Shown in pieces: positions 6,471 through 60,602 of a DNA stretch of 60,896 nucleotides. Both the position numbers and the translations under genes were made by a program. How positions within the stretch are numbered: the first letter of the stretch is position 1; the number at the start of each line of letters is the position of its first letter. The notes below the pieces were generated by a model. That model ran no database searches. It was not told where the DNA came from and was given only the letters and a program-made list of their open reading frames with translations. This DNA comes from a virus (lineage: Duplodnaviria; Caudoviricetes), in IMG/VR virus record IMGVR_UViG_3300034106_006066, positions 1 to 60,896 of that record, one strand, 5' to 3'.

Positions 6471-6475
6471 TCGTT

Positions 6476-7821: not shown

Positions 7822-7823
7822 AA

Positions 7824-8243: not shown

Positions 8244-8255
8244 ATAGGATATTAT

Positions 8256-9962: not shown

Positions 9963-9967
9963 AAGAT

Positions 9968-11828: not shown

Positions 11829-11860
11829 AAAAATTCTATCCAATCATTAGTGAGATACAA

Positions 11861-12691: not shown

Positions 12692-12752
12692 TATTATATA
12701 AACTAACTATTAGTGTATTAGCTTTAGTCTAATATGCTTATATAGGTAGTTT

Positions 12753-13097: not shown

Positions 13098-13099
13098 TT

Positions 13100-13402: not shown

Positions 13403-13406
13403 TATT

Positions 13407-14408: not shown

Positions 14409-14415
14409 GAAATAT

Positions 14416-16431: not shown

Positions 16432-16438
16432 AAATAAA

Positions 16439-17362: not shown

Positions 17363-17363
17363 A

Positions 17364-18299: not shown

Positions 18300-18301
18300 A
18301 A

Positions 18302-19162
18302 CTATTGTTCCGTTCCATGAACTATACCGCCCCTAGGTCCAGTTTTATAACCATTTGGAGTAAAAATTTTATTCCATATAGGATGAGTAAATGAAATATC
18401 ATAGCTATTAAATCCTGCTAGATAAGCAGAAATACCTATTTCAAATCCTTCAGCCCAAGTTCCGTATGAATAATCTCTATTTACTAAATAATCATGAAAA
18501 AATTTCCATTGTTCAACCATTTTTCTAAGTTTATTATTTGTATTATAAAACAATAGTAGATATTCGGCGGGAAGACCGGCTCCTCCCCAGGGATGGTTTG
18601 GATATTGTTTGATAGTTTTATTATCAAAATCTAACATATCATAATTAAATAATTTATGCCAAAAGATTGTACATCTATCATAGTCTGGTTCCACTTCTCC
18701 TAAATTAGTAATACAATTCTTATAAAATTTATCGAGCACCACATTTAATCTTAAGTCTGTTCTTGGCCCAAAAAAATCAAAATTATTAGCTAATTGTTGC
18801 GTAATAAAATGTTCAACAATTGTTTTGTCCCACCAATCAAAAGAATTATCACAATCAGTAAAAATAATTAATGTATCTTGTATATCTTGAACATGCTCAA
18901 GGCACAAATATCTCATATTAAAATTAAAATCATTAGCAGCTTTATTTGGTCCTATTGGAATTCTGACAGTCAAATCATTTTTGTTAACTATTTTTAATTT
19001 AATCCTATCATTCTCTCCGAATTTTTCATTAATAAGATGAGGATGATCTGTTGTAATATAAATAATCATATCACTCATATTTAGAACATCTTCAATCATT
19101 CTTAAACAATAGTCTTTAGTGTAATTATATCCTAAACTAAGCGTTGTTATAATAATATTCAT
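18302..19162 (-). CDS. putative GT-A glycosyltransferase
   Basis: YITTD, FTDCD (DxD); start 19162 gives ATGA overlap. Confidence 0.6.
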   Translation of the reverse strand: MNIIITTLSLGYNYTKDYCLRMIEDVLNMSDMIIYITTDHPHLINEKFGENDRIKLKIVNKNDLTVRIPIGPNKAANDFNFNMRYLCLEHVQDIQDTLIIFTDCDNSFDWWDKTIVEHFITQQLANNFDFFGPRTDLRLNVVLDKFYKNCITNLGEVEPDYDRCTIFWHKLFNYDMLDFDNKTIKQYPNHPWGGAGLPAEYLLLFYNTNNKLRKMVEQWKFFHDYLVNRDYSYGTWAEGFEIGISAYLAGFNSYDISFTHPIWNKIFTPNGYKTGPRGGIVHGTEQ

Positions 19163-20046
19163 AAGGGTATACTCGTTAATTGTGTTTTTTTTATATTTAT
19201 TGCGTACCAATTAAATAAACTTATATTAGAAACATCTCCAGAATATAGTATATTAGAAGACTCGCCTAGAATAATCATTTCTGTCATAGGAAAAATAGCA
19301 TCTTCTATAGTTTGACCATACATAGTAAAACCGTTAGGAATATGATTCATACTATGATTATCTAAATCTCTATAAAATACTACATTTATTCCAGAATCTT
19401 TTACCATTTTTTTAATTAGTGCTGAATTTGAACACATAAAATATGTGTTATTTAAATCGACTAAATTTTTTAGTTTATATATAAATGTATTTAAATTTGT
19501 ATAATTTATTGGATTCAAAGCCCTATAATAAATAGATTCAAAATTATTATTATTAAAATGTTGTTTAATAAAATCTTTAGATTGTTTAATTAAATTTTGA
19601 CTAAATACTGGAAAATATTTTACTCTATCATCAATATCATTAAAAGTAAAATTTATAAATGGTATATTTAAATTTATTATTTCATTCAAAAATAACTCAT
19701 TGGCATAAACATCAAATATACCAGGAATATTATTTTTTACATTATTATTTCTACCAGAATATATTCTTATATAATTAATATTATCATATACTCCTATTCC
19801 ATTAACTGCTATAAAAGCATTTTGTTTATTTAATATATAAAATTCATCCGCTATGCTTTTAATATAGTCTATATCTAATACCAAAGATAAAGTATTAACA
19901 TTATGAATATCATTAATTAAAAATATTACATATATATCTAAATATTTTTCTTTAATATATTTTATACAATTAACAATATCAAAGACACTAAGAAAAGTAT
20001 CCCCCCATCCATTTTGAAAATCAAATTTTAAAATTAATTTTTTCAT
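19159..20046 (-). CDS. putative fucosyltransferase-like GT-B (NodZ/GT11/23-like)
   Basis: NGWGD N-terminus, SIYYR, FMCSNS, EMIILGES..I....S.F. Confidence 0.55.
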   Translation of the reverse strand: MKKLILKFDFQNGWGDTFLSVFDIVNCIKYIKEKYLDIYVIFLINDIHNVNTLSLVLDIDYIKSIADEFYILNKQNAFIAVNGIGVYDNINYIRIYSGRNNNVKNNIPGIFDVYANELFLNEIINLNIPFINFTFNDIDDRVKYFPVFSQNLIKQSKDFIKQHFNNNNFESIYYRALNPINYTNLNTFIYKLKNLVDLNNTYFMCSNSALIKKMVKDSGINVVFYRDLDNHSMNHIPNGFTMYGQTIEDAIFPMTEMIILGESSNILYSGDVSNISLFNWYAINIKKTQLTSIPL

Positions 20047-41084: not shown

Positions 41085-44000
41085 ATGCCAGACTGCGATA
41101 TTTTATTAAAAATGAATATGGATGGTATTGATGGTTCTTCTTCTTTTATAGATGAATCTTCATATAATAGATCTTTATCTATTATAGGATCATCTCCGAT
41201 AATAAAAACAAATAATAAAAAATTTGGATCAGGAAGTGCATATTTTCCTAACTCCAACCTCTCATCTGCTATAAGAATAAATGATTTAGGAATTATAGCT
41301 AATATTAATGAAGATTTTACTATAGAATTCTGGGTCTATTTTGACTATCCGTATAGTGGTGCGATTCTAGGAAATTGGGCATTTAGTACGGGGTCGAATC
41401 AAGATTGGATGATTAATCTATCGGATGCTTCTGGTTATAATTATATTGATATAGTTTTGGGAACTCAGGCACTTATGACAAATAATACTATAATCAATAT
41501 AAATCAATGGTATCATATTGCATTTGTTCGTAAAAATAATATTTCTAAATTATACGTTAATGGATCATCTGAATTAAATAATAATTCTTTAAATAATCAA
41601 TCATATATTTTAGGTAAAATTAATACTCCTACAGATATAGGATTTGTTAATCCTAATTATTTTAAAGGATATATAGATGAAATAAAAATTATTAAAGGAT
41701 TAGCTTTATATGAATCAGATTTTCAAGTTCCCACAGAAAGAGTACCAGATTGTCAAGCATTAACAATAACTAATACTCCTACTCCAACCAGCACATTAAC
41801 TCCAACGGTAACCACAACTAGTACAGCTACTCCCGCTAGCACAACTACTCCAACTAGCACAGCTACTCCAACTAACAGTGTTACTCCAACAGCAACCTCG
41901 TCAGACATAATCTATGGTTTTCTTTATGGCTGGGGCAGGAATCAATATGGTCAACTTGGAAATGGAACAATTACTAATAAATCTTCTCCAGTTCAGATAG
42001 GAAATGATATTTGGAAACAAGTACATGCTGGAAAAAACTATACAATAGGTATACGATATGATGATACTTTATGGAGCTGGGGTAATAATACAGGCGGTCA
42101 ACTTGGGGATGGAACCACAACCAACAGACTTTTTCCAGTTCAAATAGGAAATGATACTTGGAAAAGCGTATCATCATACAATGATCAGATATTAGCTATT
42201 AAAAACGATAATACTCTTTGGCGATGGGGCCGTTGGACAGATACTAATGCCGTGCCTACTGGATCAACTACTCCAGTTCAAATAGGTAATAATTTTTGGA
42301 AAAAAGTATATGGTAATATGATTATTAAAAACGATGATACTCTTTGGATTTTGAATCTAAAAGATAGTAGTCCTACTCAAAGCAATGACACAGGAGGAAT
42401 GGTATATACGTGGCCTTCTAATGATACTTGGAAAAGCATAGCTTTTGGAAGTTCATATTTAGGAATTAAAAACGATAATACTCTTTGGGCTTGGGGACCT
42501 AATTGGAATGGTCAACTTGGAGATGGATCAACTATTGGTAGGTCTTCACCAGTTCAAATAGGAAATGATACTTGGAAAAGTGTAACTATTGGTTTAGGAT
42601 CATACCCAACAAGTTACGGTATCAAAAGTGATAATACTTTATGGGCTTGGGGTGTTGGTTATTCGTTGGTTCCAGAACAGATAAATAATGATAGTTGGAA
42701 AAGTGTGCATGTAGGATTTGACTATACACTTTTTATTAAAAACGATAATACTCTTTGGGGTTTGGGAAATAATAATCATAATCAATTTGGAGACGGAACA
42801 AATACAAATAGACTATCTATATCTCAAATAGGATCAGATGCTACTTGGCAAACAGTGTCTATAGGATATGAAGAATTTAGTTTTGGAGGTTCAGTATCAG
42901 ATCTAAACTATAATTTAGCTATTAAAACTTCTGCAATAACTCCAACCCCAACTAATACAGTAACTCCAACCAATACAACAACTCCAACTAATACGGTCAC
43001 TACAACTAGTAGTATTACTCCTACGGCCACTCCAACTAATACGACTACTCCAACCAGCACATTAACTCCAACGGTCACCACAACTAGTACGGCTACTCCA
43101 GCTAGCACAACTACTCCAACAAGAACGGCCACTCCAGCTAGTACAACTACTCCAACTAACAGCATTACTTTGACCAGAACACCAAATATAACACCCACCA
43201 ATAGTCAAACTCCAACAAGAACAGCCACCTCAACAGTTACTCCAACCAACACAGTCACTCCAATCACTAGTAAAAATTGCTTATCTTCTATTTTTCCTCA
43301 AAGTTTAGAATTTATAGCTACAAATAATGATATAATTTTTCATTCTCATATATCTGATTGTTATACTAAATGTTTTATAGAATTAGTTTTTAATAATTTA
43401 AATAATAGTCAAATTTTAACTGAAAACTTTATAGTGCCAGATGTTTCTTCTTGTTTAGGTGATTGTTCTGATGATCAAGGATATAAAACTCAAAAAGATT
43501 TTTATACAACATATAGGACTACTAATTTAGTATCTGGACATAAGTATTTATTAACTGCATCTATTAATTGTATGGAATCGATTATTCAAGAGAAAATTTT
43601 AGATTTTAATGATAGAGATATATATGATTGCTGTGAGTTACCAACTCCAGAACCTTCTACTACTAGTACAGCTACACCTACTATTAGTCCAACAAAAAGC
43701 GTTACTCCAACGCCCACAAAAACACCAGTCAATAGCGTTACTCCAACTAGCACCAGCACAACAACGCCCACAAAAACACCAGTCAATAGCGTTACTCCAA
43801 CTAGCACCAGCACAACAACGCCCACAAAAACACCAGTCAATAGCGTTACTCCAACCAGCACAACTACTCCAACAAGAACGGCTACTCCAACAGCTACTCC
43901 TATGCAAACATCCGCATGTTTATTAAATAATGGAGATTTTGAACAAGGGGCTCCTGGAAATGAGGGTGGAGGAGGAACAATTACTTCTTGGACTCAAAAT

Positions 44001-46421
44001 AGTGTAGATATTCATTCGTTGTCTTATGATAACTCCTTATCTCCTTTACAACCTCTAAATAGATGGATTGATCTAAATACTTGCGCACCTGGATATATTC
44101 AACAATCAATTAATACTATTATAGGACAATCTTATTCTATTAGTTTTAAATTAGCAGCCAATAATAAAGACGCAAGAAATATTATTAAAACTTGTAGACT
44201 ATCTATTATAGGATCATCTACTATAACACAAGATTATACTTTCGACCCATCTGCTACAACATACGAATCGTATGAAAGTATGGGATGGATTGATCAAAAT
44301 TATATATTTACGGCTGATAGTTCCACAACAACTATAAAATTTGAAAGTACGTGTCCCGATTGTGGATGTTTTGGACCAGCAATAGATAATGTTTGTTTGA
44401 TTCAGACAAGTGCTAATTATAATAATTGTGCAAATTGGAATGGATCTACCAACGGTAATGTTACCACAGTAGGAAGTAATGGTGCTCCTAGTTATTATGG
44501 GACTTATGATCAAAGCGGAAATGTTTATGAGTGGAATGATCTAGATGGTACTCCTGGCTCGCTTCGTGGGCTTCGGGGCGGCTACTGGGGCAGCGACGCG
44601 CTCCCCTTGTCGTCCTCCTACAGTCTCAGCTTGTGGTACGCCCCGTCGAACTATATCAACGGCGTCGGTTTTCGTCTCGCATGTTCCCTTAACTCTTTAA
44701 ATCTTTCTAACTTTGTAAATATAGGAAATATTAACAATAGTAACGATAGTACTGGTTATGGGAGTGTAAGCTACAATTATCAAATAAATCAATACTTGGT
44801 CACCAACTGTGAGTATGTTGAGTTTTTAAATGCGGTTGCTAAGACGGACACTTATAATCTTCATAATACGATTGATAATGACTATGCTGGCATAACACAA
44901 ACCGGAACCATCGGCAATTTTGTCTACTTTGTCAAGACAAATATGGATAACAAACCCGTAGTTTTTGTAAGCTGGTTTAACGCGGCAAGATATTGCAACT
45001 GGTTACATAATGGTAAACCCTCTGGACCTCAAAATAATAGCACAACCGAAACTGGAGCATACTCTCTTAACGGAGTAACTAGCGGTAACGCTGTAGCAAA
45101 AAACAGCGGAGCTAAATATTATATCCCCACCGAAAACGAATGGTATAAAGCGGCTTTTTATAGTCCCAATAAAAATGGATCACCAGGATATTATCAGTAT
45201 GCTACTCAAAGCGATACTGCTCCAACGTGTGTAACAGCAAGCAGTACTGGAGATGGGCCAGTAAGTTCTAATTACTACGCTTGTCCATTACCGTCGCTTA
45301 GTCCAACACCAACCAGCACAACAACGCCCACAAAAACACCAGCCAATAGTGTTACTCCAACCAGCACAACAACGCCCACAAAAACACCAGCCAATAGTGT
45401 TACTCCAACCAGCACAACAACGCCCACAAAAACACCAGCCAATAGTGTTACCCCAACTAGCACAACTACTCCAACAACAACGGCTACTCCAACAGCTACT
45501 ACAGTTAGTTTAAATAGTGCTAATTTTAATGAGTGCGCCGATTGGAATAGTCAAAATGGTAATGTTACTACAGTAGGAAGTAATGGTGGGCCGAGTTATT
45601 ATGGGACTTATGATCAAAGCGGAAATGTTTATGAGTGGAATGATCTAGCTGGTACTCCTGGCTCGTCTCGTGGGTTTCGGGGCGGCTTCTGCCTCAGCCT
45701 AAACGCGAGTTCCTTGTCATCCTCCACCGGGTTCTCTAACGCCACGTCGTACGCTGGTAATATCGGAGAATTAATCGGTTTGCGTCTATCATCATCATCT
45801 TCTACTCCTAATTCTTCTAATGACTTTGTTACTGTAGCAAATACTGGTAATAGTAATGACTCTACCGGTTATGGAAATATAAACTATACTTATCAAATAG
45901 CTAAATATCCTGTAACTAACTGTGAGTATGCTAAGTTCTTAACTGCGGTAGCAAGTACCGACACATATAATCTTTATAGAGATAGCGAAGCAATAGGAAT
46001 GGATAGTGATGCTAGAAGTGGCATAAATCGAAGCGGCTCCAGCGGTAATTTCACCTACACTGTTAAAACTAACATGGGTAACAAGCCTGTAATTTATATG
46101 ACTTGGTTTAATGCTGCAAGATACTGCAACTGGTTACACAATAATAAGCCTACCGGACCTCAAAACTCCAGCACAACCGAAGACGGAGCATACTCTCTTA
46201 GCGGAAGAATTAGCGGTAACTCTGTAGCAAAAAATAGCGGAGCTAAATATTATATCCCCACCGAGAATGAATGGTATAAAGCAGCTTATTATAGTCCCAA
46301 TAAAAATGGATCACCAGGATATTATACATATGCTACACAAAGTGATAACCCTCCAGTATGTGTAACAGCAGATAGTTTTGGAAACGGGCCAAGAATCTCG
46401 GATTATATCTGTCCAACTTAA
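41085..46421 (+). CDS. giant adhesin/fibre protein: LamG - RCC1 propeller - DUF642-like - two permuted FGE/CLec domains, Thr/Pro linkers
   Basis: DFTIEFW/WYHIAFVR/GYIDE; WG.N..GQLG repeats; NGDFE..IDLN..GPAIDNV; two DQSGNVYEW..GFR + ENEWYKAA units. Confidence 0.88.
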   Translation: MPDCDILLKMNMDGIDGSSSFIDESSYNRSLSIIGSSPIIKTNNKKFGSGSAYFPNSNLSSAIRINDLGIIANINEDFTIEFWVYFDYPYSGAILGNWAFSTGSNQDWMINLSDASGYNYIDIVLGTQALMTNNTIININQWYHIAFVRKNNISKLYVNGSSELNNNSLNNQSYILGKINTPTDIGFVNPNYFKGYIDEIKIIKGLALYESDFQVPTERVPDCQALTITNTPTPTSTLTPTVTTTSTATPASTTTPTSTATPTNSVTPTATSSDIIYGFLYGWGRNQYGQLGNGTITNKSSPVQIGNDIWKQVHAGKNYTIGIRYDDTLWSWGNNTGGQLGDGTTTNRLFPVQIGNDTWKSVSSYNDQILAIKNDNTLWRWGRWTDTNAVPTGSTTPVQIGNNFWKKVYGNMIIKNDDTLWILNLKDSSPTQSNDTGGMVYTWPSNDTWKSIAFGSSYLGIKNDNTLWAWGPNWNGQLGDGSTIGRSSPVQIGNDTWKSVTIGLGSYPTSYGIKSDNTLWAWGVGYSLVPEQINNDSWKSVHVGFDYTLFIKNDNTLWGLGNNNHNQFGDGTNTNRLSISQIGSDATWQTVSIGYEEFSFGGSVSDLNYNLAIKTSAITPTPTNTVTPTNTTTPTNTVTTTSSITPTATPTNTTTPTSTLTPTVTTTSTATPASTTTPTRTATPASTTTPTNSITLTRTPNITPTNSQTPTRTATSTVTPTNTVTPITSKNCLSSIFPQSLEFIATNNDIIFHSHISDCYTKCFIELVFNNLNNSQILTENFIVPDVSSCLGDCSDDQGYKTQKDFYTTYRTTNLVSGHKYLLTASINCMESIIQEKILDFNDRDIYDCCELPTPEPSTTSTATPTISPTKSVTPTPTKTPVNSVTPTSTSTTTPTKTPVNSVTPTSTSTTTPTKTPVNSVTPTSTTTPTRTATPTATPMQTSACLLNNGDFEQGAPGNEGGGGTITSWTQNSVDIHSLSYDNSLSPLQPLNRWIDLNTCAPGYIQQSINTIIGQSYSISFKLAANNKDARNIIKTCRLSIIGSSTITQDYTFDPSATTYESYESMGWIDQNYIFTADSSTTTIKFESTCPDCGCFGPAIDNVCLIQTSANYNNCANWNGSTNGNVTTVGSNGAPSYYGTYDQSGNVYEWNDLDGTPGSLRGLRGGYWGSDALPLSSSYSLSLWYAPSNYINGVGFRLACSLNSLNLSNFVNIGNINNSNDSTGYGSVSYNYQINQYLVTNCEYVEFLNAVAKTDTYNLHNTIDNDYAGITQTGTIGNFVYFVKTNMDNKPVVFVSWFNAARYCNWLHNGKPSGPQNNSTTETGAYSLNGVTSGNAVAKNSGAKYYIPTENEWYKAAFYSPNKNGSPGYYQYATQSDTAPTCVTASSTGDGPVSSNYYACPLPSLSPTPTSTTTPTKTPANSVTPTSTTTPTKTPANSVTPTSTTTPTKTPANSVTPTSTTTPTTTATPTATTVSLNSANFNECADWNSQNGNVTTVGSNGGPSYYGTYDQSGNVYEWNDLAGTPGSSRGFRGGFCLSLNASSLSSSTGFSNATSYAGNIGELIGLRLSSSSSTPNSSNDFVTVANTGNSNDSTGYGNINYTYQIAKYPVTNCEYAKFLTAVASTDTYNLYRDSEAIGMDSDARSGINRSGSSGNFTYTVKTNMGNKPVIYMTWFNAARYCNWLHNNKPTGPQNSSTTEDGAYSLSGRISGNSVAKNSGAKYYIPTENEWYKAAYYSPNKNGSPGYYTYATQSDNPPVCVTADSFGNGPRISDYICPT
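43709..43856 (+). repeat. 54-nt coding tandem repeat, about 2.7 copies
   Basis: aacgcccacaaaaacaccagtcaatagcgttactccaac starts at 43709, 43763, 43817. Confidence 0.9.
44551..44681 (+). repeat. putative DGR variable repeat VR1
   Basis: 83/130 GC and 13 A over 44551-44680 (hand count); encodes RGG.W...SS...PS....GFR with NNC codons at variable positions. Confidence 0.65.
45309..45457 (+). repeat. 48-nt coding tandem repeat, 3 copies
   Basis: ccaaccagcacaacaacgcccacaaaaacaccagccaatagtgttact. Confidence 0.9.
45655..45787 (+). repeat. putative DGR variable repeat VR2
   Basis: 60/100 GC over 45661-45760 (hand count); shares invariant codons with VR1 and differs mostly at positions 1-2 of NNC codons. 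Confidence 0.6.
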
Positions 46422-47334: not shown

Positions 47335-50300
47335 ATGATCATATATTCTTTAAAAACGTCTTTTACTTATAAAAATAACGAATCATTAGATTTGTTAACT
47401 ATTCCAGAAAATAGTTTTGATAATAATTTATATATTGATTATAATAATTTTATAAATTCAGTATCATTTATTTATGGTGATCAAAAACTTGATGGATCTA
47501 TTCCTGTCTTTTGGACCAGAATAAAAGACAATAATACTCTAGAAAGAGAAGCTGATCCGAATAGTACTCTTCGAAGTTTACAAAGTAATCATCATTATTA
47601 TATAGTATTATTAGATAATTCTAAATTACCAGTTAAAATTCCAACCCCAATAGATAGTTCTAAATTCTTAGGAAAAAATAATTATTCTAATATAAAATGT
47701 GACGATATAGATTGTGATAATCAATTAACAATAAACTCTACCGCTCATAGATCATTATTATTGAATAATGATACCGGACACTCAGCAGATATTCATATAG
47801 AGCTATCTGGCTTAAAGCCCAATTCATCATATCTCTATACTATAGAGCCTATAATTTCTAATTGGCCATATAAATTAAGTCAATACTCAGGAGAAATCTT
47901 AAGAAATAGTCCATTAACAAATTTGGGACTAGTAAATTCCGCCATAGATACCAAATTTATATATCTGCCAGATATATCTAGTTCTGGATCTGGCCCCTTA
48001 ATAGATATTACCAATACTGATTATAAAAATAATATTTTTTCATTACTCTCTTTAAAAATTTTTAATGAATCTAATAGTTTGGTTGCTAAAGACACCATAA
48101 GTATTCTGTGCGACAACTGCATAACATCATCTATTACTGATAAATGCGCCAGAATAGATATTTTAAGTAAAAATATTGTATTATCTAGTGGAGATTCGTC
48201 TGTCAAACTAATAGGTAGCTGTTATAATTTAAATCCTAATAGTAAATATATATATAATTTTTATAGTAATAATTCTAATTGGCCGTGCTTTATTTCTCCA
48301 GTTTCTGGAATAGTATCTATTGATTCACTATATGCTCAAGATACTATTATTTATGGTTCTGGAAATATAGAGGCAGTATTACAATTTAATAATAATCTAC
48401 AAGAAACTTCTAATTTAGCATATAATATACCAGAATATACTAGCGAAGTTTTTTTTGATAAAAATATATATACTAATTTAGGCTTATATATTAGTTCAGA
48501 ATCTGAAGATTGTGATACTGCTTTCGACAATACGAATATATTGTGTAATTCATGTTTATCTAGTAAAAGCTTAGGTAATTGTTTAAATTCAATCAGTATA
48601 AATATTAATAATTCTAATTTACAATATCCTATTCTTTCTTCAGTTTCGAGGCCAGGAGCAGAAATATTAGTACCAGAAGATTGTTGTAATAAAACTCAAA
48701 CTTTAACAACTACTATTAGTGGATTATGTGCTAATCATCAATATACTTATGAGTGGACTAGCTATCCAGATATTAGAATTATACCTACCAGCGGATATTT
48801 AAGTATAAATGATGATTCAACAATTTTACAAAGCTTATATAATTTAAACAACAATCAAATTAGTAGTATTAAATTAAAAATTTTTGATGGAGACAAATAT
48901 GTTGAAGATAATGTATTGATAAGATGTAATAATGGTTGTTTTAAACCAAGTCCTACACCTACTCCAACTAATACCACTACCCCAACAGTTACTCCTACAA
49001 ATACTATTACTCGCACAGCTACTCCAACTAATACCGTTACTCGCACAACTACTCCAACTAATACCGTTACTCGCACAACTACTCCAACTAATACCGTTAC
49101 TCGCACAGCTACTCCAACAAATACGGTGACTCCAACAAATACAGCTACTCCATATGCAACCCCAACCACAACTGTGGCTATAACACCCACACCAACACTC
49201 ACTGACCTTTATTATTCTTTATATCCTATCTTGTCGGCTCCTAACGTAGATTGGACAGTATTATCTTTATCTAATAATGGAGAAAAAATAGTTGGAGCAT
49301 CTTCTACTAGACAAAATCCAGGACAATCTCCTGCTATTTACCAAGATAAAATATATATTAGTTCGAATAGCGGTTCTACTTTTAATGATAGTACACCTCT
49401 CGGTTTAGATTTTTATAACGTAGATATTGATTCCTCAGAAGATGGAACAAAATTAATAGTTAGTGTTATAAATGGTGTTTATGTTTCTGCTAATGGCGGA
49501 TTGAATTGGACATATATTAATATTCCTAAAAATCCAAATGATGTAAATAATAGTTATTTTGAGGGAGTGGCAATATCCAATGATGGTACAAAAATGATTG
49601 CGGCCCGTGCAAGCGGTATGATTTATAGTTCCTCTAATGGGGGAGTTTCCTGGACATCAGGCTCCATTCTTCCAGAAGACTTACTAATTGGAGGCAATAT
49701 TAGAAGTTGGAATTCGGTAGTAATGTCTGGAGATGGCGAAACATTTATAGCGTCTGATATTTTCGGTGTTTATATTTCTAAAGACTATGGAGTTACTTGG
49801 GATAAATCTTTCTATAATTCAGGAATACTGGCATGCTCAAATAACGGTAACGAGATATTCTGTTTAAGAAATGATTACTTTTCATCACCAAATACTCCAG
49901 CTGGTTATAAATCTATTAATGGAGGTGCGACATGGACTCTATTAAATATTAGAGACAACAATGGTGATTTGTTTCCGCTAGTTTCGGGACTCTTTAAAAG
50001 CGTCTCCTGTTCTGCTGATGGTTCAAAAATTATTGTTGCCGACTATGGTATGAATAATTATCTAGGAGTTACTAGTAACGGTAATCTATATTTATCTGTT
50101 GATTATGGAACAACATGGAGAAAACTAAATTTTAATCAACCTTATGGTGGAATCTTTAATCCAATTTTAAATTGGCATACTGTAGATATTTCCTCTGATG
50201 GTTCAAAAATTATTGCTTCCTGCAAGGCGACATCAGTACAAAACTGGCCAGCGACTTATGAACAAACTAATTTATATTATGATCAAAAAATATTTTATGC

Positions 50301-51288
50301 TTTAATTCCATCAAATACTAATACTCTGACACCTACGCCAACTAATAGTACTACTCCAACTCCAACAAAAACTAGCACAACACCTACCCCAACAACCAGC
50401 ATAACACCTACTCCAACAAAAACTACAGGATTAATATATTCCAATATGCTATTTAATAATAGCTCATGGAACTCTATAGACGATGCTTACTGGAGAAATA
50501 CTTTAACTAATGCGGCAAATAGATGGTCAACATATTTAAGATATGGTGAAGAGGCTATTAATTACATAAAATCTTTATATCCTAATTGGTCAGGATTAGA
50601 ATTAAAGATAACTCCAGAAACGTTTAGCATATATAATGATTCTAATAGTACGACCATAGCATCATGCGGGCCTGTTAATTTTATTACTGGAGCGAATACA
50701 AATACTAGTAATATTCCATTATTTAATTCTATTAATTTTCAATTACATATTAATGAATATTATCGTAATAGTTACTCTAATAATGATTGGTTAAATATAT
50801 TAACTCATGAACTAGGACACGCATTAGGAATAGGTATATACTGGGATCCATTCTTTTCAAGCTATGGAGCAGTTGTTCCAGCGGATAATTTTATTAATAA
50901 TGAAAACTATAATATAACACAACAAGGTTATAATAATATAACCTCTTTAAATAGGAGTAAAACTCCAATAGAAGATTCAGGATCGGCTGGTACAGTTAAT
51001 TCTCACTGGGAAAATAATTATAGAGATACAAATTATTCTGGAGGGAATGGGGTAGCTTATCCTGGATTATCTAATGAATTAATGGTTGGTACTATTAGTC
51101 CAGGAAATAGTAGAGTATTATCATTATTAAGTATAAAAAATTTGGTTGGATATGGATACGAAGAGAAAAATCCAAATACTTCAGAAGGAATTCCAACTAT
51201 TATAGATTCACCAAGCATGTCTACACAAAATATACATCTTGGATGCTCTTGTTTAAAAGATATCATAAAGAATATGAAACCCGTATAA
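47335..51288 (+). CDS. large adhesin: repeated Ig-like modules, TP stalk, BNR/Asp-box propeller, leishmanolysin (M8)-like metalloprotease
   Basis: S.DYG.TW/S.NGG..W repeats; HELGHALG...SHWE...NELM. Confidence 0.85.
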   Translation: MIIYSLKTSFTYKNNESLDLLTIPENSFDNNLYIDYNNFINSVSFIYGDQKLDGSIPVFWTRIKDNNTLEREADPNSTLRSLQSNHHYYIVLLDNSKLPVKIPTPIDSSKFLGKNNYSNIKCDDIDCDNQLTINSTAHRSLLLNNDTGHSADIHIELSGLKPNSSYLYTIEPIISNWPYKLSQYSGEILRNSPLTNLGLVNSAIDTKFIYLPDISSSGSGPLIDITNTDYKNNIFSLLSLKIFNESNSLVAKDTISILCDNCITSSITDKCARIDILSKNIVLSSGDSSVKLIGSCYNLNPNSKYIYNFYSNNSNWPCFISPVSGIVSIDSLYAQDTIIYGSGNIEAVLQFNNNLQETSNLAYNIPEYTSEVFFDKNIYTNLGLYISSESEDCDTAFDNTNILCNSCLSSKSLGNCLNSISININNSNLQYPILSSVSRPGAEILVPEDCCNKTQTLTTTISGLCANHQYTYEWTSYPDIRIIPTSGYLSINDDSTILQSLYNLNNNQISSIKLKIFDGDKYVEDNVLIRCNNGCFKPSPTPTPTNTTTPTVTPTNTITRTATPTNTVTRTTTPTNTVTRTTTPTNTVTRTATPTNTVTPTNTATPYATPTTTVAITPTPTLTDLYYSLYPILSAPNVDWTVLSLSNNGEKIVGASSTRQNPGQSPAIYQDKIYISSNSGSTFNDSTPLGLDFYNVDIDSSEDGTKLIVSVINGVYVSANGGLNWTYINIPKNPNDVNNSYFEGVAISNDGTKMIAARASGMIYSSSNGGVSWTSGSILPEDLLIGGNIRSWNSVVMSGDGETFIASDIFGVYISKDYGVTWDKSFYNSGILACSNNGNEIFCLRNDYFSSPNTPAGYKSINGGATWTLLNIRDNNGDLFPLVSGLFKSVSCSADGSKIIVADYGMNNYLGVTSNGNLYLSVDYGTTWRKLNFNQPYGGIFNPILNWHTVDISSDGSKIIASCKATSVQNWPATYEQTNLYYDQKIFYALIPSNTNTLTPTPTNSTTPTPTKTSTTPTPTTSITPTPTKTTGLIYSNMLFNNSSWNSIDDAYWRNTLTNAANRWSTYLRYGEEAINYIKSLYPNWSGLELKITPETFSIYNDSNSTTIASCGPVNFITGANTNTSNIPLFNSINFQLHINEYYRNSYSNNDWLNILTHELGHALGIGIYWDPFFSSYGAVVPADNFINNENYNITQQGYNNITSLNRSKTPIEDSGSAGTVNSHWENNYRDTNYSGGNGVAYPGLSNELMVGTISPGNSRVLSLLSIKNLVGYGYEEKNPNTSEGIPTIIDSPSMSTQNIHLGCSCLKDIIKNMKPV
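49001..49120 (+). repeat. 30-nt coding tandem repeat
   Basis: actccaactaataccgttactcgcaca(a/g)ct units. Confidence 0.85.
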
Positions 51289-51413: not shown

Positions 51414-54400
51414 ATGAGTAATAGTGCCAATTATAAAAACTCAGCAATATGGAATAATGTTGTAGGAAATATTACAACAAACGGAACTAATGGAATTTCT
51501 AGTTTCTATAATACTAGAGATCAAAGCGGAAACGTTTGGGAATGGATAGAAAATTCAAACAGTAATGATAATTTATTAAAGAACAGAAGAGGAGGGGCGT
51601 GGAACAGCTCATCCGAAAAGTCTATTTCTGTATCAGGACTAGCTACAGGATCATTAGCAACAAAAAGTCATAATACTGGTTTTAGAATTGGCCAATCTTT
51701 CCAAGAGAATAATTATAGTTTTGCTCACTTTGTTGATATTATTAATCCTAATAATCCACCAGATACTGGAAATAATACAAACTTAGGATCAGTGTCATAT
51801 TCTTTTAAAATTATGCAGAATACTGTTACTAATTCTCAGTACGCATATTTTCTTAATGTTGTTGACCCTAGCGGCCTAAATAGTCATAATTTATATTCTA
51901 CTTTAATGACTAAAGATAATGATTTAAATAATCCTCGTGGAGGCATAAATTATTCTAGTTCTAGAAATATAGGATCAAAATATACAGTAAAACCTTATTT
52001 TGAGAATAAACCAGTTAATTATGTTAGCTGGACCAACGCCGCCATGCTATGCAATTGGCTCCATAATGGAGCATCATCCAATAGTAGTGTAGCAACAGGG
52101 GTTTATGACCTAAGTAACCCGAGTACTACTTCAAGATCAATAGATGCTAAATATTTTATTCCTAATGATAATGAATGGTACAAAGCAGCTTTTTATTCAG
52201 ATTCTATTTCTGGTTACTATTTATATGCGACTCAAAGCAATCAGGCGCCTTGCTCCATAGGATCAAATAGTTGTGGTAGTATTAATTCTATTAATGGAGA
52301 TGGTTCAGTAATTACTAATGCTCCAACTCCATCTATTACTCCATCTGTTACTTTTAGTCCAACTCCAACACTATCTATTAGTCCTACTAAAAGCTTAACT
52401 CCAACAATTACTTCAACCAAAACATTAACACCAACTAAAACACCTACTAATACTCCAACTATATCAATTAGTCCTACTGTTACTATCAGTCCATTTACAA
52501 CTTCTACTCCAACAGTTTCTGTTACTAATAGCAATACTCCGACTTTAACAGTAACACGGACTATAACGCCGACCAATACTGCTACTACAACAAGAACACC
52601 ATCTCGCACACCAACAAAAACACCTACACCAACAAAAACAAATACCCCCACAATAACACCTACAACTTCTATTAGTCCGTCAATTACTCCTAGTATCAGC
52701 TTAAGTGCAAGTATAGAGCCTCCTAGTAGACCAGATATTCTAGATAGAAGACACAATATCAAACAGTATATTGGCAAAAATCCTTTAAATCTTATATCGG
52801 CACCAACACCACGACTAATCAATGATACATTAGTTAAAGATTGGTATAATTTTATTTCAAATATAGAACTAATTTATCAAAAAGATATTAATAATAATGG
52901 ATTATATGATAATAGTAGTTTATATTTTAATACCATAGCTAGTGGTGACTCCATAGTCCCAGATTCATCATCAACACTACAACAATTAGAAACGAATCAG
53001 ACATATTATTTTATACTAAAATCATCAGCAAACATTCCTGTCAAAATTCCTTTTGATAATCATAATTATAATTCTATACTAGCTTCCTCTGGTATTATTG
53101 ATTCTATCAGGAAATTAGACCTATCACCAGATTCTTTTATTGGTAAAATCAATTCTAATAATGAATTAAATCACTTAACTATTATAGATGCTTTGTATAA
53201 AGATATAGATAATCTTAAAAAAGATAAAAAATATCCAGATAAAATACAACAAGCAGAAAATATATTAGATGTTGTATATACTGATTATATTAATAACAAT
53301 CCTTGCTCATCATTAGTAGAATATGAAGAGAATTGTGATTCTCATTATAATTTTAATCCATCTATTAATTTACCTTCTGGATTATCAAATAATTTAACTA
53401 ATATTAATATTGAAAATATAGACACTTATATTGCTAGAATTAATATTCCAATTAACAATTTACCAGAATTAACAAACAATGAAGAAATTTTGTATGAATT
53501 TAATTTTATAGATACTGATGGTAAAACATACCAAATATACCCATATAGCGGATCTATTCTACCCAATAATAATTTATCAAATATTTCTGCGATAGTAAAT
53601 ATGTTCCCTTCGTCTACTCCAACAGTTACTCCAACTATAACTCCAACAAATACTGTTACTCCTACAAGCACTGTTACTCCAACCAATAGTATTACTCCTA
53701 CCAATAGCATTACTCCTACTTTAACTCCAACAACAACAATTACCCCAACAAGAACAACCACTCCAACAAATACCATTACTCCGACTAATACTATTACGCC
53801 GACTAATACTATTACTCCGACTGTTACTCCAACCAACACCATTACTCCAACCAATACTATCACTCCAACTATCACTCCAACTACTACTATAACTCCTAGT
53901 ACTACCAGACCATCTTATAATAGTGCAAACTATAATGAATCAGCCAACTGGAATGGGTCTTCTGGAGGTAATGTAACGACCGTAGGTAGCAATGGAGGAT
54001 CATCTTATTATGGAACTTATGATCAAAGCGGAAATGTTAAAGAATGGAACGATCTAAATAATAGTATTACTGTAAATAAAGGTTTAAGGGGCGGAGGGTG
54101 GAACGATACTTTAGCAACACTATCGTCTTCTTCCGATTCATTATCTTTTATTCCAGAATATGCTGATGATAGTATAGGATTTCGTATTTGTGCGATGAAT
54201 AATACTTTTGATTATAATTTTGTAAGTGTTGCGGATACTAATAATATTAATAGCTCTAATTCATATGGAAATGTAAATTATATTTATCAAATTGGAAAAT
54301 ATCCAGTTACTAATTGTGAATATGCTCAATTTTTAAACTCAGTTGCATCAGTAGATAAGTATAATTTATATAATGATAATATGGATAGCGCTAGATGCGG

Positions 54401-57400
54401 CATAGTTAAAATACCAGGCTATAGTACTACAAATAATTCAATGCTAAATATTGATTTTGTTCCTGTTCTTAATTCAGGAAATGCCCCCAATCCATTGATT
54501 AGCCCAGATCTGTCTACTGTTAGTAGTAGCGGTTCTGTTAATTATAATTTTCATATAGGAAAGTATGAAATAACTAATGCTCAATACTCTTCGTTCCTTA
54601 ATAGTGTTGCTAAAACAGATACTAATAATTTATATAGAATACTTATGGAGAATGAAATAGTTCGTTCTGGTTCTAATGGAAATTATAGCTATAGCACAAC
54701 AGAAGGAAATGAAAATAAACCAGTTTGTTTTGTTTCGCAATTTGATATTTTTAGATTTGCTAATTGGCTACATAATGGTGGTCCGTCAGGTCTTCAAAAT
54801 GCTTCAACAACAGAAGATGGGGCATATGATATGTCATTGTCTAGACCATTGCGCAAATCTGGAGCAAAATTTTGGATTCCTAGTATAGATGAATGGTATA
54901 AATCTGCTTTCTATAGTCAAGAACTAAATAATGGGTCCGGAGGTTATTATCTGTATCCAACAAGCAGTAATACTTTATCTCCAAGTAATCCTCCCGGAGG
55001 ATCTGATTCAGCTAATTTTAATACTGTTGTTGGAGAAAAAACAGTTGTTGGAAGCTATATTAATGCAACTTCTCCATGTGGTGCATATGATATGGCAGGA
55101 AATATTTCAGAAAGATTGGATACTTTTGTTAGTTTTAATGATCTATACTTACATGCGGTAGGAAATTGGAATTATTCAGGTGAATTTACAAATATTCCTG
55201 GAGAATTATTTAATTCATCATCATCAGAACACACCTTTGCTACTGCTGGACTTACATCAGAAAACGAGAGAGTAGGATTTAGAGTAGCTGGATTTTTCCC
55301 AACCAACTCGTATTCTGTAAAACCCGATTGGAATAATAAGCCAATAGTTTTTGTTAATTGGTTTGATGCTGCCAGATATTGTAATTGGCTACATAACAAC
55401 AAAATCAGAGGACCACAAGATATTACTACAACCGAAGACGGAGCTTACACTCTGAATGGTATTGTTAGTGGTAATGGAGTAATAAAAAATACAAATGCTA
55501 AATATTGGATTCCTAGTGAGAATGAGTGGTATAAAGCAGCATATTATAGTCCTAATAAAAATAATACTGGTAATGTTGGATATTACCTTTATGCTACTCA
55601 AAGTGATGAACCGTTGTACTTTGTTACTGCTGATAGTGCAGGAAATGGCATATTAAACGAACAACTCGCTCAAGCTAGCGATTATTTCTGTGGAGAATTA
55701 CCAACTCCTACTCCAACAAAAACAACCACTCCAACTATTAGTACTACCCCCACAAATACAATTACGCCAACCAATAGCGAGACTCCAACAGCTACTCCAA
55801 CAAATACCTCTACCCCAACAAATACTCCTACTCCAACTAGTACTCTAACTCCATTTTTAAGCCCATCGATTACTCCAACAAGTACTCCAACTAGTAGTGA
55901 GACGCCTACTGCCACACCTACAAATAGTATTACTCCTACTAATACTCTTACTCCAACTAATACCATAACCCCAACACAAACTATTACTCCTACTTCTACC
56001 GATATAGCTATTGGAAATAGAGCTAATTATAACGGATTAGCTAATTGGAACGGATCTACCGGAGGAAATCTTACTTCAGTAGGAAGTAATGGAGGACCAA
56101 GTTATTATGGAACATATGATCAAAGCGGATTAGTTTATGAATGGAATGATTTAAACAATATTGATTCCCCCAATAGAGGGAAAAGAGGGGGCTGGTCTGG
56201 AAATAGCGCATTAGCATTATCTTCTGCTTTCAGAGCTGAGGATCCGATAGCCTCAATAAGATCATCTGTAGGATTTCGTTTGTCTTCTAGTACTAATCCA
56301 TTAAATCTTGATATGTCATTAATTACAGATCCTGGTAATACTTTTGATACTGGTGGAACTAATTATGGTTCTGTAAACTACACATACTATATAGGAAAAT
56401 ATATTATTACTAATTGTGAATATGTAGATTTTCTAAATAGTGTTGATCCTCAAGGAATTAATCCGCAAAATATATATAATACTTCTATGACAACAAGTAT
56501 TCATGGAGGTATTAATTTTAATAGTGGAGCAAATAATGGTAATAAATATACTATAAAAACTAATTGGGGAGATAAACCAGTAGTTTTTGTAAACTGGTTT
56601 AGCTGCTCAAGATACTGCAACTGGTTGCACAACGGTAGGTTTAAATATCTCACCTCAGATAGTTCTGCTAATGCTCCTCAAAATAATGGTGCATATAATA
56701 TAGGGATATCAACAACAGGCAATGCTGTATCAAAAACTAATACAGCATTATATTATATACCTACAGAAAATGAATGGTATAAAGCTGCATATTATAAAGG
56801 AAATGGAACCAACGCTGGATATTGGAGATATGCCACTCGATCCAACGATATTCCATTAGCAATAACTGCTGATAGTTTTGGTGCTGGAACATTAAATGGA
56901 ACTTCAGTAATAACTAATTATAGTTGTCCTCCTTCTCCAAGTTCTATGCCAACACCCACTCCTACTACTACTTCCACTCCAACAAATACTGTTACTCCAA
57001 CCTTAACTATTACCCCAACCAGAACAGCCTCTCCAACAGTTACTCCAACCAGAACAGCCTCTCCAACAGTTACTCCAACCAGAACAGCCTCTCCAACAGT
57101 TACTCCAACCAGAACAGCTACTCCAACAGTTACTCCAACAAGAACATCCACTCCAACAATTACTCCAACCAGAACGGCTACACAAACAACTACTCCAACA
57201 AACACCTCTACTCCAACAAACACCTCTACTCCAACAAGAAGTATAACTCCTACGCGAACACTAACGCCAACTAATACGGTTACTCCGACCCAAACCAAAC
57301 TAATACTACCCTTGACTGCCGGTTCTAATACAGCTAATTTTATTGGATTATGGGGAAACACAACATTAAGTAGTACTTTCAATAGTAATGACAACTACAG

Positions 57401-60400
57401 CAACATTAGAGCTGTAGCAGCAGGATATGGTCGTACCACTCCTGGTCCGATGTTTTCTACAGCTAGAGGCAGTATCAATATTAGATTTATTGATCAGAAT
57501 AATCAGCCTGTTTCTGTTACCGAATTCTCATTAAGCAATATCATACTATATTATGAATTTAGACCAGTATCTTTAAGTGGAGCGACTTTAACTGGTAGTG
57601 GTTCTAGCTATATATTAACTTTACCATCGAATACTAATTCTTTAAATGGAGCCTATCAATTAAAAATTACAGGATTTGACCCAGAAGGTTTATATTCAAT
57701 GATTTGTTGGCAAAAATGGATTCTTGGATCTGAAAACTTAAGATATATTTGGTATAGTACTAATTGGAATGAATCATTAACTAATAATGTTACAACTGTG
57801 GGTAGTAATGGTGGTCCTAGTGCATATGGTACTTATGACCAAAGCGGGAATGTAGAGGAATGGACAGATAACTTTGGTCTTGCTGAAGTTAGTAAAAAAT
57901 TACGAGGAGGATCATATAGATCAGTTATTCATGAAATTAGTAAAATTTATAGATCCGTAGATACAATTCCATCATATAAAGATCCCAGATATGGCTTTAG
58001 AATATGTAGTTTTAATAATTCTAATTCAATACCAAATTTAGTACAAGTAGTTAATTCTAATAATACTCAAGATACAACAGGATTTGGATCTGTTCCTTAT
58101 GCTTATTTTATAAGTAAATATCCTATTACTAATTGTGAATATGTAGAATTTTTGAATAGTATTGATCCTCAAGGTTTGAATCCTCAAGGGATTAGTCCAG
58201 ATGCTGCTGCTAGAAGAGACATAATATCGGGTATACTATTTGATAGTACCTCCTCCAACGGAAATAAGTATTCTACCAAACCTAATATGAGTAATAAGCC
58301 AGTAGTATATATAAATTGGTTTAATGCTGCGAGATATTGCAATTGGTTACATAATAATAGACCAAAACTATTAACAACAAACCTATCAGCAACGGCTCCA
58401 CAAAATGTTGGTGCTTATAATTTAGGATCAACAACAACAGGTAGTACTGTAGCCAAAGAGCCCAATGCTAAGTATCATATTCCAACAGAAAATGAATGGT
58501 ATAAAGCAGCATTTTATAAGAGCAATTCTACCAATGCTGGATATTGGAATTATGCTACTCAACAAGATACTATCCAGTATGTTAGTAGTGATCAATTTGG
58601 AAATGGTATTAATTTTAATCTAAACAATCATCCCGTTGCTAGAAGTAGTGATTTCAATTGTATTCAATATGTTACTCCTACTCCTACTATTACTCCCACC
58701 AAAACCTCAACTCCTACTGCTACTCCAACAAGTACTATGGGTCCAAGAACACCAACTCCAACATCGTCAATTCCATGTGACTTTACATTACAAAAATGGT
58801 TACCACTGATCGACTCACAATTAGATATAGCACCTGCATGGACGTGTCTCGCCTCTAATGAAGATGCAACAAAATTAGCTGCTATTTCCTACAACAATTT
58901 CAATGTTGGGGGCTTTGGTATAGAATACAAGGTTTATGTTAGTAATAATAGTGGAAAAACCTGGACATTAAGTTTTGCGTCTAATGACCCTTTAAATAGT
59001 ATAGCAAGCGATAGCACAGGAAATAAACTAATACTAACAGCAGACAATGGTTCAGGTATCGGAACATTACATACCAGTACTGATGGTGGTCAAACTTGGA
59101 TACCAAGAACTTCTGCTGGCATTAAACCCTGGCAAAAAGTAATTAGTAGTAATAATGGAAATAATTTAGTTGCAATAGAGTTGACTACTTCTATATATAC
59201 TAGTAGCGATAGCGGAATAAGTTGGACAAAAATTGATAACGATCTATTATCAATGTCGGGGTGGTATGATATTGCTATGAATAGCGACGGATCTCAATTA
59301 ATAGGTATATTACCTACTACTACTAGTGGATTGATAGCAAATCTATATGTTAGTAGTGATTATGGAAATAATTGGACAATTATTAATAGTGCTGGGACTA
59401 GATCATGGAGAAGAGTATTACAAAATAATACTGGTTCAATAATAGTAGCTTTAGCAACACGAACTGCTAATGCTAGTCCAGACGAGATACACGATATGTT
59501 TGTGAGTACGAACGGTGGCGTTTCTTGGACTCAAAGAGGATCTGCTGCTTCCAAAGCATGGTGGGATATCTCTATGAACAAAAATGGTAATATTATATTA
59601 GGAATTAATCATGCTAGTACTTCAAGTAATAGCACGCCTGGAGATTTAAGCTCTATTTACCTTAGTAGAGATACTGGTATTTCTTGGAGCGAATTAGCTT
59701 ATAATAATGGTTCGGTTGGGAATGGGATGACTAAAGTTTGGAGTAAAATATCAACCGACTACTCAGGAAATAAATTCATAGCTTCCGCATCTAATAATAG
59801 TGTCTATACAATGGATTGTAGCATTCCTTCAAAAGGAATTCTGTTTGACAGCTCTTCCTGGATAAACAGGTCGGATGTTCCATCTTTATATCAATCTTTA
59901 TTAAATACTGCTTCTAACAGATGGTCTAATTATATCAAATTAAGTGACATTACTTTAAATCAACATCCAGGACTCATTAGTTCACAAGGATTACAACTAA
60001 AATCATTCTCCTTATATAACGATGGATCAGACTGGTCAGCTGCTAGATGTGAACCAAATAATGATTATACTGGATTTAATTTGTCTATTAATACATATTA
60101 TAATCCAGGGCTTACCAACTTATGGAGTAATATTATTGTACATGCATTGGGTCATGGTCTAGGTATCGGAACCAATTGGACTGTTACAGGAGGTTTCGTT
60201 GGAGGCGTATCTGATACTTCTCTTAGACTAGATGGAATATCATATCCTATGACTTTGGCCGCTTGGAGACTTATTTCCGCAAACCGACTCATGCCATATA
60301 CGCCGGTACTTGAAGAAAATCAAATTGGAGCAGGAACACACTGGACAGATACAGTTATAAATGAGATTATGAGAAGACCTATAACGGAATCCAGAAATAT

Positions 60401-60602
60401 AACAATATTAAGTATTAAAAACCTATTAGACATAAAGCCTCTCGGATTTGAGAGATATGTGGAAATCAAACCAGGAAATTTTGAAAAATGGATTTCACGA
60501 GAACAAGATTCCTTTTTTACTCCACAGATACAACAAAATATAGAAGAAAATATTCTTTATTGCGGAACATGTAATCATATTAATTCACTTAAAACTAACT
60601 AA
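51414..60602 (+). CDS. 3062-aa giant adhesin: four permuted FGE/CLec domains, one nested canonical FGE domain, BNR propeller, inactive M8-like domain
   Basis: Four DQSG..EW..GFR + EWYKAA units, one DMAGNISE unit, Asp-box repeats, HALGH. Confidence 0.88.
57014..57170 (+). repeat. 30-nt coding tandem repeat ([10 protein letters not shown])
   Basis: agaacagcctctccaacagttactccaacc x3 plus degenerate copies. Confidence 0.9.

Follow-up and report, generated by a model that had tools for sequence, protein, structure and literature searches.

GC-rich blocks in a putative adhesin gene of a T4-like lake phage appear to match the template of a cellular diversity-generating retroelement

A phage gene with two GC-rich blocks in permuted lectin modules

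The stretch analysed here, called the window, is a single viral contig of IMG/VR (IMGVR_UViG_3300034106_006066) with a length of 60,896 nt, a GC content of 31.8% and an estimated completeness of about 44% (CheckV). It carries markers of a T4-like myovirus, namely RIIA (E 1e-111), a clamp loader and glycosyltransferases. Every match of RIIA to cultured phages was below 60% identity, and neither a close cultured relative nor a clue to the host was found in this comparison. An open reading frame (ORF) of 1778 aa at 41085-46421 (+ strand, as for all parts of this gene given below) encodes LamG, RCC1-like repeats, Pro/Thr (PT)-rich linkers, DUF642 and two FGE-sulfatase/C-type-lectin modules; its Pfam matches are FGE-sulfatase (PF03781, E 1.7e-28), DUF642, Laminin_G_3 and RCC1. 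We consider it a putative carbohydrate-binding or adhesin protein of the phage. Each lectin module contains a GC-rich block, and these two blocks, VR1 and VR2, appear to be variable repeats (VRs) belonging to the family of VRs and template repeats (TRs) of a cellular diversity-generating retroelement (DGR).

VR1 spans 44554-44683 (63% GC) and is homologous to the entire 124-nt cellular TR described below, which as a query matched it at 77% identity (E 1.5e-23). VR2 (45658-45791, 55% GC) is a degenerate copy of the TR block, matched at 75% identity over TR positions 3-93. The original prediction, made from the letters of the window, had located the two patches by their composition, and its figures hold: 44551-44680 is 63.8% GC and 10.0% A, and 45661-45760 is 60.0% GC, against 36.8% GC for the whole gene. 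Within all 60,896 nt, 130-nt segments with GC of at least 0.60 and A of at most 0.13 occur only at 44540-44568. Both patches cover the RGG...GFR segment of their FGE-type module, as had been claimed. The 3' invariant segment is intact in VR1 (...CGTCTCGCA) and damaged in VR2, where a TGC codon stands for TGG, TTG stands for TTT (giving GLR instead of GFR) and the 3' end is A/T-rich. The near-identical DNA that had been noted upstream of the two copies is an AT-rich lead-in, 44470-44553, which is identical to 45574-45657 at 80 of 84 nt and which we read as the record of a recent module duplication.

Comparison with the protein encoded by a cellular target gene (locus L273, described below) revealed the order of parts within each module. 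In module 1, the C-terminal lectin half comes first (44409-44699; motifs SANYNNC...GNVYEWNDL...RGG...GFRLA; 59% identity to residues 239-328 of the cellular target) and is followed by the N-terminal half (44676-45269; Y.I..Y.VTN.EY..FL; 50% identity to residues 41-235), in which residues 1230-1364 of the ORF match Pfam positions 35-129 of FGE-sulfatase. A PT linker with tandem repeats (45291-45497), variable in length and sequence among sequencing runs, lies between the modules. Module 2 repeats the order, with a C-terminal half at 45504-45791 (47% identity to residues 214-337) and an N-terminal half at 45732-46388 that runs to the gene end (50% identity, E 4e-57). The phage gene therefore reads C-half with VR1, N-half, PT linker, C-half with VR2, N-half, whereas the cellular domain has the N-half and then the C-half with the VR.

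The same order emerged from known structures. When 28 phage units were combined into a profile, its positions 25-92 aligned with the C-terminal portion of FGE-type chains of solved structure, including residues 191-292 of TvpA (2Y3C), a DGR variable protein of Treponema, and its positions 122-204 aligned with the N-terminal portion of those chains. The VR-bearing half corresponds to TvpA residues 191-292, and the VRs lie in the ligand-binding C-terminal segment of the C-type-lectin/FGE fold. Both halves of PF03781 are matched in the phage modules, but with the C-half before the N-half rather than in canonical order. An AlphaFold model of one permuted unit is compact (pLDDT 82.9, pTM 0.88); a Foldseek search of this model against the PDB gave no match at E <= 0.001, which would not be surprising for a permuted domain. 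We accept the phage modules as members of the FGE/C-type-lectin family with a topology predicted to be a circular permutant. The mid-gene position remarked on in the original prediction is real, and it stems from this permutation together with the tandem arrangement: the VRs lie inside the gene, not at its 3' end, because the lectin domain is permuted. The permuted unit (modules 44409-45310 and 45504-46418) is conserved in 49 related loci. In an alternative pairing, the first N-half, the PT linker and the second C-half could form a canonical domain with a long insertion.

A template repeat and its cassette in cellular genomes

A scan with the backbone pattern of the blocks returned 46 stretches in GTDB genome contigs, at least 120 in metagenome contigs and seven in IMG/VR, the last described further below. 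Among the 173 matches listed, 77 have the full backbone. Twelve of these resemble a TR in having 11-13 AAC codons, and without exception their flanks are 66-70% GC. Pairs of VR and TR lying in cis about 1.9 kb apart (L303, L305 and G066:C87) define a TR of 124 nt with 31 adenines, which extends from CCGGCTCG to CGTCTCGCAAG. VR and TR of these pairs differ solely at TR adenines, except for two 5'-edge bases in L305 and one C-to-A change in G066. The latter change gives the cis VR of G066:C87 (L363, 4601-4724) an in-frame TAG where the TR reads TCG, so the assembled allele may encode an inactive target.

The TR is accompanied by a bAvd-reverse transcriptase cassette. In L326, bAvd is found at 118-570 (PF22296, E 3e-22; NF033474, 102 bits with a cutoff of 80) and RVT_1 at 570-1955 (E 1e-22), with the TR at the 3' end of the reverse transcriptase (RT) ORF, and this bAvd-RT-TR arrangement recurs in L273, L215/G048:C422 and G066:C87. 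In L273 (minus strand, reverse-complement coordinates 6151-6274) and in L276, a VR-like sequence with a TR-type 3' flank occupies the TR position after the RT ORF; it has 15 A-site changes and a single AAC codon, as though the TR itself had been overwritten or had become frozen.

By bin label, 8 of the 11 full-backbone genome matches are from Planctomycetota, one of them on a 92.9-kb contig; this count includes a 'Kuenenia' bin, which we take to be Planctomycetota. The other three lie on a 532-kb Chthoniobacterales contig (one) and on short contigs of actinobacterial bins (two). RVT_1 is present in four of the five metagenome-assembled genomes (MAGs) tested, each MAG tested has one to four TR-like copies, as far as tens of kb from the RT, and the TR was matched in 11 of the 201 genomes of the MAG's order. 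In one MAG, a single 532-kb contig carries copies at 273, 302.5 and 339 kb. We read the cellular DGR as serving several dispersed targets, remote within the cell.

The target in L273 is a protein of 360 aa with a signal peptide, a canonical FGE domain carrying the VR and a tail resembling PEP-CTERM (NCBIfam profiles matched it weakly, below cutoff); this is the protein that shares 50% identity with the phage N-halves and 59% and 47% with the two C-halves. Most cellular VRs precede a PEP-CTERM-like tail, and several of the short cellular contigs (with VR loci such as L345, L332, L298, L329 and L273) have two VR-bearing genes in tandem. The cellular DGR thus appears to diversify a family of exopolysaccharide-associated surface lectins. 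The original prediction had placed a GC-rich TR elsewhere, in the phage or in its host. Such a TR was found, with AAC codons and beside Avd and RT, in cellular genomes and not in the phage; judged from these sequences, the template belongs to the bAvd-RT cassette of GC-rich freshwater bacteria, mostly Planctomycetota MAGs, and not to phages.

Phage blocks without a phage retroelement

The window itself contains no RVT_1, Avd or TR, as searched by BLAST with the patches, by an adenine-tolerant scan and with the TR as query, in a genome that is about 44% complete. This agrees with the earlier claim that TR and RT are missing from it and adds Avd to the list. The adenine-tolerant, gap-free scan for a TR on both strands of the window gave nothing beyond A-rich noise (25-35% identity). 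Apart from the patches, strong GC enrichment occurs only at 15416-15835, which was rejected as a TR: it is a PPSPPGPP/poly-Gly linker. This 420-nt stretch (62% GC, with PPSPPGPP repeats and a run of 13 Gly residues) lies in a 671-aa protein encoded at 14416-16431, where it is followed by a Cys-rich domain, and roughly half of the Planctomycetota genomes searched give spurious matches to its Gly-run DNA.

A search of IMG/VR with module 1 recovered 49 related loci, many on contigs of 100-320 kb, and 47 of these (all except L030 and L049) formed the set of records for the RT and TR tests. RVT_1 was found in 0/47 records, nine of which are at least 90% complete, and was detected in three control genomes. 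The patch as query matched 10 of the 47 and the TR matched 17, ten with one full-length copy and the rest with shorter ones; the best identity was 87%, and a TR copy of at least 90% identity was found in 0/47. Four of the nine records of at least 90% completeness have a VR-like match with neither RT nor TR. The backbone pattern applied to all of IMG/VR returned seven stretches, four lone VRs of this family and three unrelated sequences, and no TR. A looser pattern, CGGGGCGGCNNCTGGNNCNNCNNC, recovered true VR and TR pairs of other DGR phages as a positive control (L071, L087, L096 and L166), and among the matches listed its IMG/VR yield was mostly unrelated GC-rich DNA. VR and TR/RT were not found together in one replicon, either in the window or in these records. 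One provirus record (G047) has AT-rich ends, hence no host flank could be read from it.

We then compared the phage blocks with the cellular TR, scoring mismatches against the nearest of seven TR variants; only these seven were sampled, and variants fitting the insertion of VR1 may have been missed. VR1 is changed at 17 of 31 A sites and at 8 of 93 non-A sites and has a 6-nt insertion (p 2.8e-7), and VR2 is changed at 19 of 31 A sites and 15 of 91 non-A sites, with 14 nt of indels (p 4.8e-6). Sister copies from related phages show 12 A-site and 2 non-A changes with a 3-nt indel at the edge (L060, p 4.8e-7), 15 and 4 with a 3-nt indel (L049, p 8.0e-8), 18 and 4 with no indels (L056, p 9.8e-10) and, in the partial copy L321, 16 and 0 with no indels. 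The adenine bias is strong in VR1 and VR2, yet neither is a clean TR product, and the sisters L321 and L060 are clean or nearly so. The original prediction had called for a search for a TR differing only at adenines; both patches differ from the TR found preferentially at these sites.

The limits of the blocks follow those of the TR. In the phages TR homology stops within a few nt of the 3' motif CGTCTCGCAAG. At the other end it starts at the 5' motif CCGGCTCG or up to about 20 nt inside it, a pattern shared with the cis cellular pairs, and AT-rich codons lie directly outside the block. Among phage blocks the 3' limit hardly moves and the 5' limit varies. GC content at third codon positions (GC3) steps sharply at these limits: 0.79 in the block of VR1, with 0.20 upstream and 0.28 downstream, and 0.61 in that of VR2, with 0.17 and 0.10. 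Cellular VRs have mean values of 0.83, 0.74 and 0.69 for block, upstream and downstream (n=68 among the matches listed). For 10 of 11 phage copies GC3 in the block is 0.72-0.85, VR2 being the eleventh, and outside it is 0.10-0.60.

When 53 non-redundant copies of the segment were collected by motif, their composition proved bimodal. About 15 lie in AT-rich contigs (flank GC 0.33-0.53) and have a core GC of 0.49-0.65; in the remaining copies the core has the same GC as the flanks. A codon alignment of these approximately 15 GC-cored copies, from which L041, L044, L045 and L046 had first been dropped as lying in GC-rich contigs, shows a backbone conserved even at synonymous sites, flanks with different codons, and variable codons that are almost all NNC. 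The invariant codons, the NNC-type variable codons and the misfitting indels described in the original prediction are all present as stated.

The neighbouring gene of 3062 aa (51414-60602, + strand) offers an internal control. It contains six FGE-type stretches, and its equivalents of the VR segment are AT-rich: four paralogous copies (51528-51689, 54030-54188, 56127-56282 and 57846-58004) have 30-45% GC. The protein fold evidently does not force a GC-rich composition, and these equivalents are best regarded as a control and not as VRs, given their AT-richness. The 3062-aa gene, the ORF at 41085-46421 and a further giant ORF between them (47335-51288, 1317 aa, Sortilin/BNR) make up a cluster coding for very large proteins with a putative role in surface binding.

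A VR allele of its own was seen in each of thirteen phage copies, and the alleles differ between all phage lineages. At two linked polymorphic TR sites the phage VRs carry the haplotypes T-G (5), G-G (3), C-C (1), C-G (2) and A-G (2). Of these, T-G, G-G and C-C are TR variants found in cells, and C-G is found in cellular VRs. The presence of several cellular TR haplotypes among the phage VRs points to repeated independent transfers and not to a single ancestral one.

Parts of the window are contained in 24 lake or freshwater runs, eight of which contain at least 55% of its sampled words. We examined Logan contigs of four runs (X1-X4) from four studies (2020, 2023 and 2024). VR1 is spanned by a 673-nt contig (44515-45187) with 0 differences in X1, X2 and X3 and by a 565-nt contig (44490-45054) with 0 differences in X4; VR2 is covered by a 700-nt contig (45619-46318) in X1-X3 and by one of 45681-46048 in X4, again with 0 differences. 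The dominant alleles of VR1 and VR2 are fixed, and the expectation that variation would concentrate in the patches failed, the contigs of the four runs being identical over both. The differences between runs fall in the PT repeat and in pieces of other contigs. Within VR1 the sole difference is an indel pair at 44601/44605, which derives from GC-rich contigs that we read as cellular VRs. The PT repeat at 45313-45460 varies among runs (differences at 45343-45458, with a 6-nt insertion behind 45359), and the VR blocks do not. GC-rich loose ends with flanks of cellular type occur in the same lake runs, which indicates that DGR-bearing organisms co-occur with the phage.

Proposed routes from cell to phage

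As the origin of the blocks in the phage we favour mutagenic retrohoming in trans from the DGR of the host, to which we assign a probability of roughly one half; both the retrohoming and the role of the DGR-bearing bacteria as hosts are matters of inference. In this mechanism the cassette would diversify several dispersed, PEP-CTERM-anchored lectin proteins of the cell, and the phage would carry lectin modules homologous to those targets in which the TR-matching segment has been kept. During infection, the DGR of the cell would make adenine-mutagenised cDNA from the TR, and this cDNA would replace the homologous segment of the phage gene. A block as long as the TR would have been rewritten repeatedly and independently in several phage lineages, within a gene otherwise adapted to AT-rich composition. 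In the phage studied here these events would not be recent, with VR1 fixed and slightly decayed and VR2 decaying in the duplicated module; the blocks in this phage look old.

Retrohoming is favoured because the DGR already serves dispersed targets, because the 3' limit of the blocks is nearly fixed and the 5' limit variable, and because action in trans with minimal target requirements has been published. In the available text of the two sources concerned, avd, TR and brt are described as functioning in trans (PMC5758913, PMC3240598), and a DGR in trans as rewriting any DNA that offers a 3' initiation of mutagenic homing (IMH) region and at least 8 bp of 5' homology (Guo et al. 2011, PMC3240598); a low-efficiency pathway independent of the hairpin is also described there. 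Of the original idea that a host DGR was borrowed in trans, the cellular origin of the template is upheld, and the choice of retrohoming over short-patch recombination stays an inference. Multi-target diversification of one protein had likewise been proposed. Both patches appear to be TR-derived; the sequences give no sign of present-day diversification at two sites, VR2 being degenerate and VR1 having an insertion and eight non-A changes.

A number of observations weigh against retrohoming from such a host. No ongoing diversification of VR1 or VR2 was seen in the contigs of the four runs, although rare variants would be invisible in contigs. Non-A mismatches number 8 in VR1 and 15 in VR2, accompanied by a 6-nt insertion in the former and 14 nt of indels in the latter, and the median of non-A mismatches is 8 in phage VRs (range 2-22, n=13) compared with 2 in cellular ones (range 0-12, n=64, among the matches listed). 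The phage DNA is 32% GC and the proposed hosts are 60-70%, a gap of 30-35 points, and the lytic cycle of T4-like phages leaves little time for homing. No independent link to a host was found: short exact matches of window positions 1-20000 to 401 Planctomycetota genomes are confined to Gly-repeat or low-complexity sequence and the clamp loader. A-site states shared between phage and cellular VRs are not above the cell-cell background (3 phage and 37 cellular VRs in register), a result that is neutral between homing and recombination. Downstream of the VRs there is no hairpin signal in fold energy for 14 phage copies (mean z 0.22) or 73 cellular copies (0.29), and this DGR family may not use a hairpin like that of BPP-1. 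Finally, the Chthoniobacterales chromosome (L364/L366, G050:C1, 532 kb) holds a VR with the Planctomycetota-type backbone and 1 non-A mismatch. The RT-adjacent TR of this genome has a different backbone with its own VR, and the Planctomycetota-type VR lies 30 kb away, not beside the RT of that genome (loci L200 and L360). It is either an orphan VR in a cell or the product of a second DGR absent from the MAG; as an orphan, it implies that a VR block or gene can travel without its TR as well.

A rival route is short-patch homologous recombination, in which phage recombinases would import the block from VR copies of the cell through its invariant arms (about 27 nt at the 5' side and 17 nt at the 3' side), after an old acquisition of the lectin, and the DGR would never act on phage DNA. 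T4-like phages degrade host DNA and recombine actively, the MAGs offer one to four TR-like copies each, and the haplotypes of phage VRs also occur in cellular VRs. Phage and cellular DNA are moreover so unlike outside the block that crossovers would be confined to it, mimicking the limits of the TR. However, these arms offer very little length, an unusual stretch of shared variable-site states was not seen between any phage VR and the 37 in-register cellular VRs (the sampling is tiny), and a nearly fixed 3' limit with a variable 5' limit would fit cDNA integration better. We consider this route rather unlikely. An assembly artefact, with cellular VR reads mis-joined into phage contigs, has a negligible probability: cellular VR contigs do occur in the same samples and have short words in common with the patch, but independent contigs (673 nt in three runs and 565 nt in a fourth) contain VR1 together with the AT-rich flanks on both sides and show 0 differences, VR2 is likewise covered, the patch is in frame, and each of the thirteen phage copies has its own allele.

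The blocks might instead descend from a retroelement of the phage itself, with an RT-TR cassette in the unassembled 56% of the genome or recently lost, and VRs that are now decaying. The estimated completeness of the contig (about 44%), the static state of VR1 and VR2 with their non-A changes, and a slight lean of interior non-A substitutions from G/C to A/T (56 of 97 in phage VRs vs 80 of 174 in cells) would all suit such a relic. Against it stand the absence of RVT_1 from all 47 related records, the four of nine records of at least 90% completeness that have a VR-like match but no RT or TR, the 66-70% GC flanks of all 12 TR copies among the matches listed, the lack of any TR in the IMG/VR scan, the several cellular TR haplotypes among phage VRs, and L321 with 0 non-A differences from the cellular TR. 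On balance we judge a phage-borne DGR improbable. Still less probable, to a degree that makes it very doubtful, is a single old horizontal transfer of a whole cellular target gene, in which selection on protein or nucleic acid retained the patch and no template contributed later. The modules are 47-59% identical to the cellular target over both halves, and a VR of this backbone can sit as an orphan in a cell whose own TR is different, as such a transfer would allow; but the conservation of synonymous sites is confined to the TR span, four paralogous modules on the same contig encode the fold at 30-45% GC, the TR haplotypes differ among phages and the step in GC3 is sharp.

Retrohoming in trans from a cellular DGR can be set beside several described systems. 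The DGR of BPP-1 (Mtd/bAvd/TR/bRT) similarly rewrites an RGG...GFR-type segment of a receptor-binding-type C-type-lectin protein from a TR with AAC codons, with adenine specificity, and the Avd and RT of the cellular cassette described here are of the BPP-1 kinds. BPP-1 differs in that the phage itself carries the full cassette, beside a target gene whose 3' end holds the VR. In the present case RT, Avd and TR are missing from the phage, the template is of cellular origin and the VR lies within the gene; for the BPP-1 hairpin no counterpart was detected. Cellular DGRs of the Treponema denticola TvpA type, as presented in the accessible part of PMC5758913, have an FGE-type variable protein and one TR for several dispersed targets, as does the cellular DGR here. 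Remote targets are reported in that part of the source (Wu et al. 2018, PMC5758913) only within the genome of the RT itself, and remote cellular targets are argued not to be expected for phage-associated DGRs since they are not inherited with the phage. Here, by contrast, it is an infecting phage without a DGR that would carry the remote target. Guo et al. (2011, PMC3240598, as far as its accessible text goes) used a laboratory construct with transplanted IMH and hairpin, while the configuration proposed here from sequence would be natural and would cross replicons. DGRs borne on integrative and conjugative elements (ICEs) of Bacteroides also spread DGR-driven evolvability of adhesin-type proteins horizontally, but in the available text of that preprint (bioRxiv 10.1101/2024.11.15.621889) RT, TR and target travel together, and here a target-like block alone is on the mobile genome.

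DGRs are generally regarded as acting on targets in the replicon or genome that carries them. In the sections available to us, the largest DGR survey was unable to detect VRs away from the RT (PMC8144416), and large surveys required a VR beside the RT or reasoned that targets do not cross the boundary between phage and cell (PMC8144416, PMC5758913). A full-text literature search found no earlier description of VR blocks that occur in DGR-less phages and match a cellular TR; the remote-target lists in the supplements of PMC5758913 could bear on this novelty.

In its fullest form, our proposal is that a chromosomal DGR of Planctomycetota writes adenine-mutagenised cDNA into infecting, DGR-less T4-like phages that have kept a TR-matching landing pad in lectin modules captured from DGR targets of the cell itself. 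This is tentative, and we hold it at somewhat less than even odds. The phage would thereby borrow a diversifier for its adhesin, or the host would scramble the binding site of the phage, as a side effect or as a defence, and the block would be a barcode linking an uncultured phage to the DGR of its host. Even if short-patch recombination were the true route, the repeated import of hypervariable blocks of the host into a phage adhesin would be unusual. If retrohoming is correct, DGRs would offer a path by which sequence passes in a directed manner from host to virus, and this would explain VR-like adhesin segments in phages that have no RT. To our knowledge, few phages of Planctomycetota are known; retrohoming, if true, would give a new alignment-based means of assigning hosts to uncultured phages, which here would connect AT-rich T4-like lake phages with Planctomycetota.

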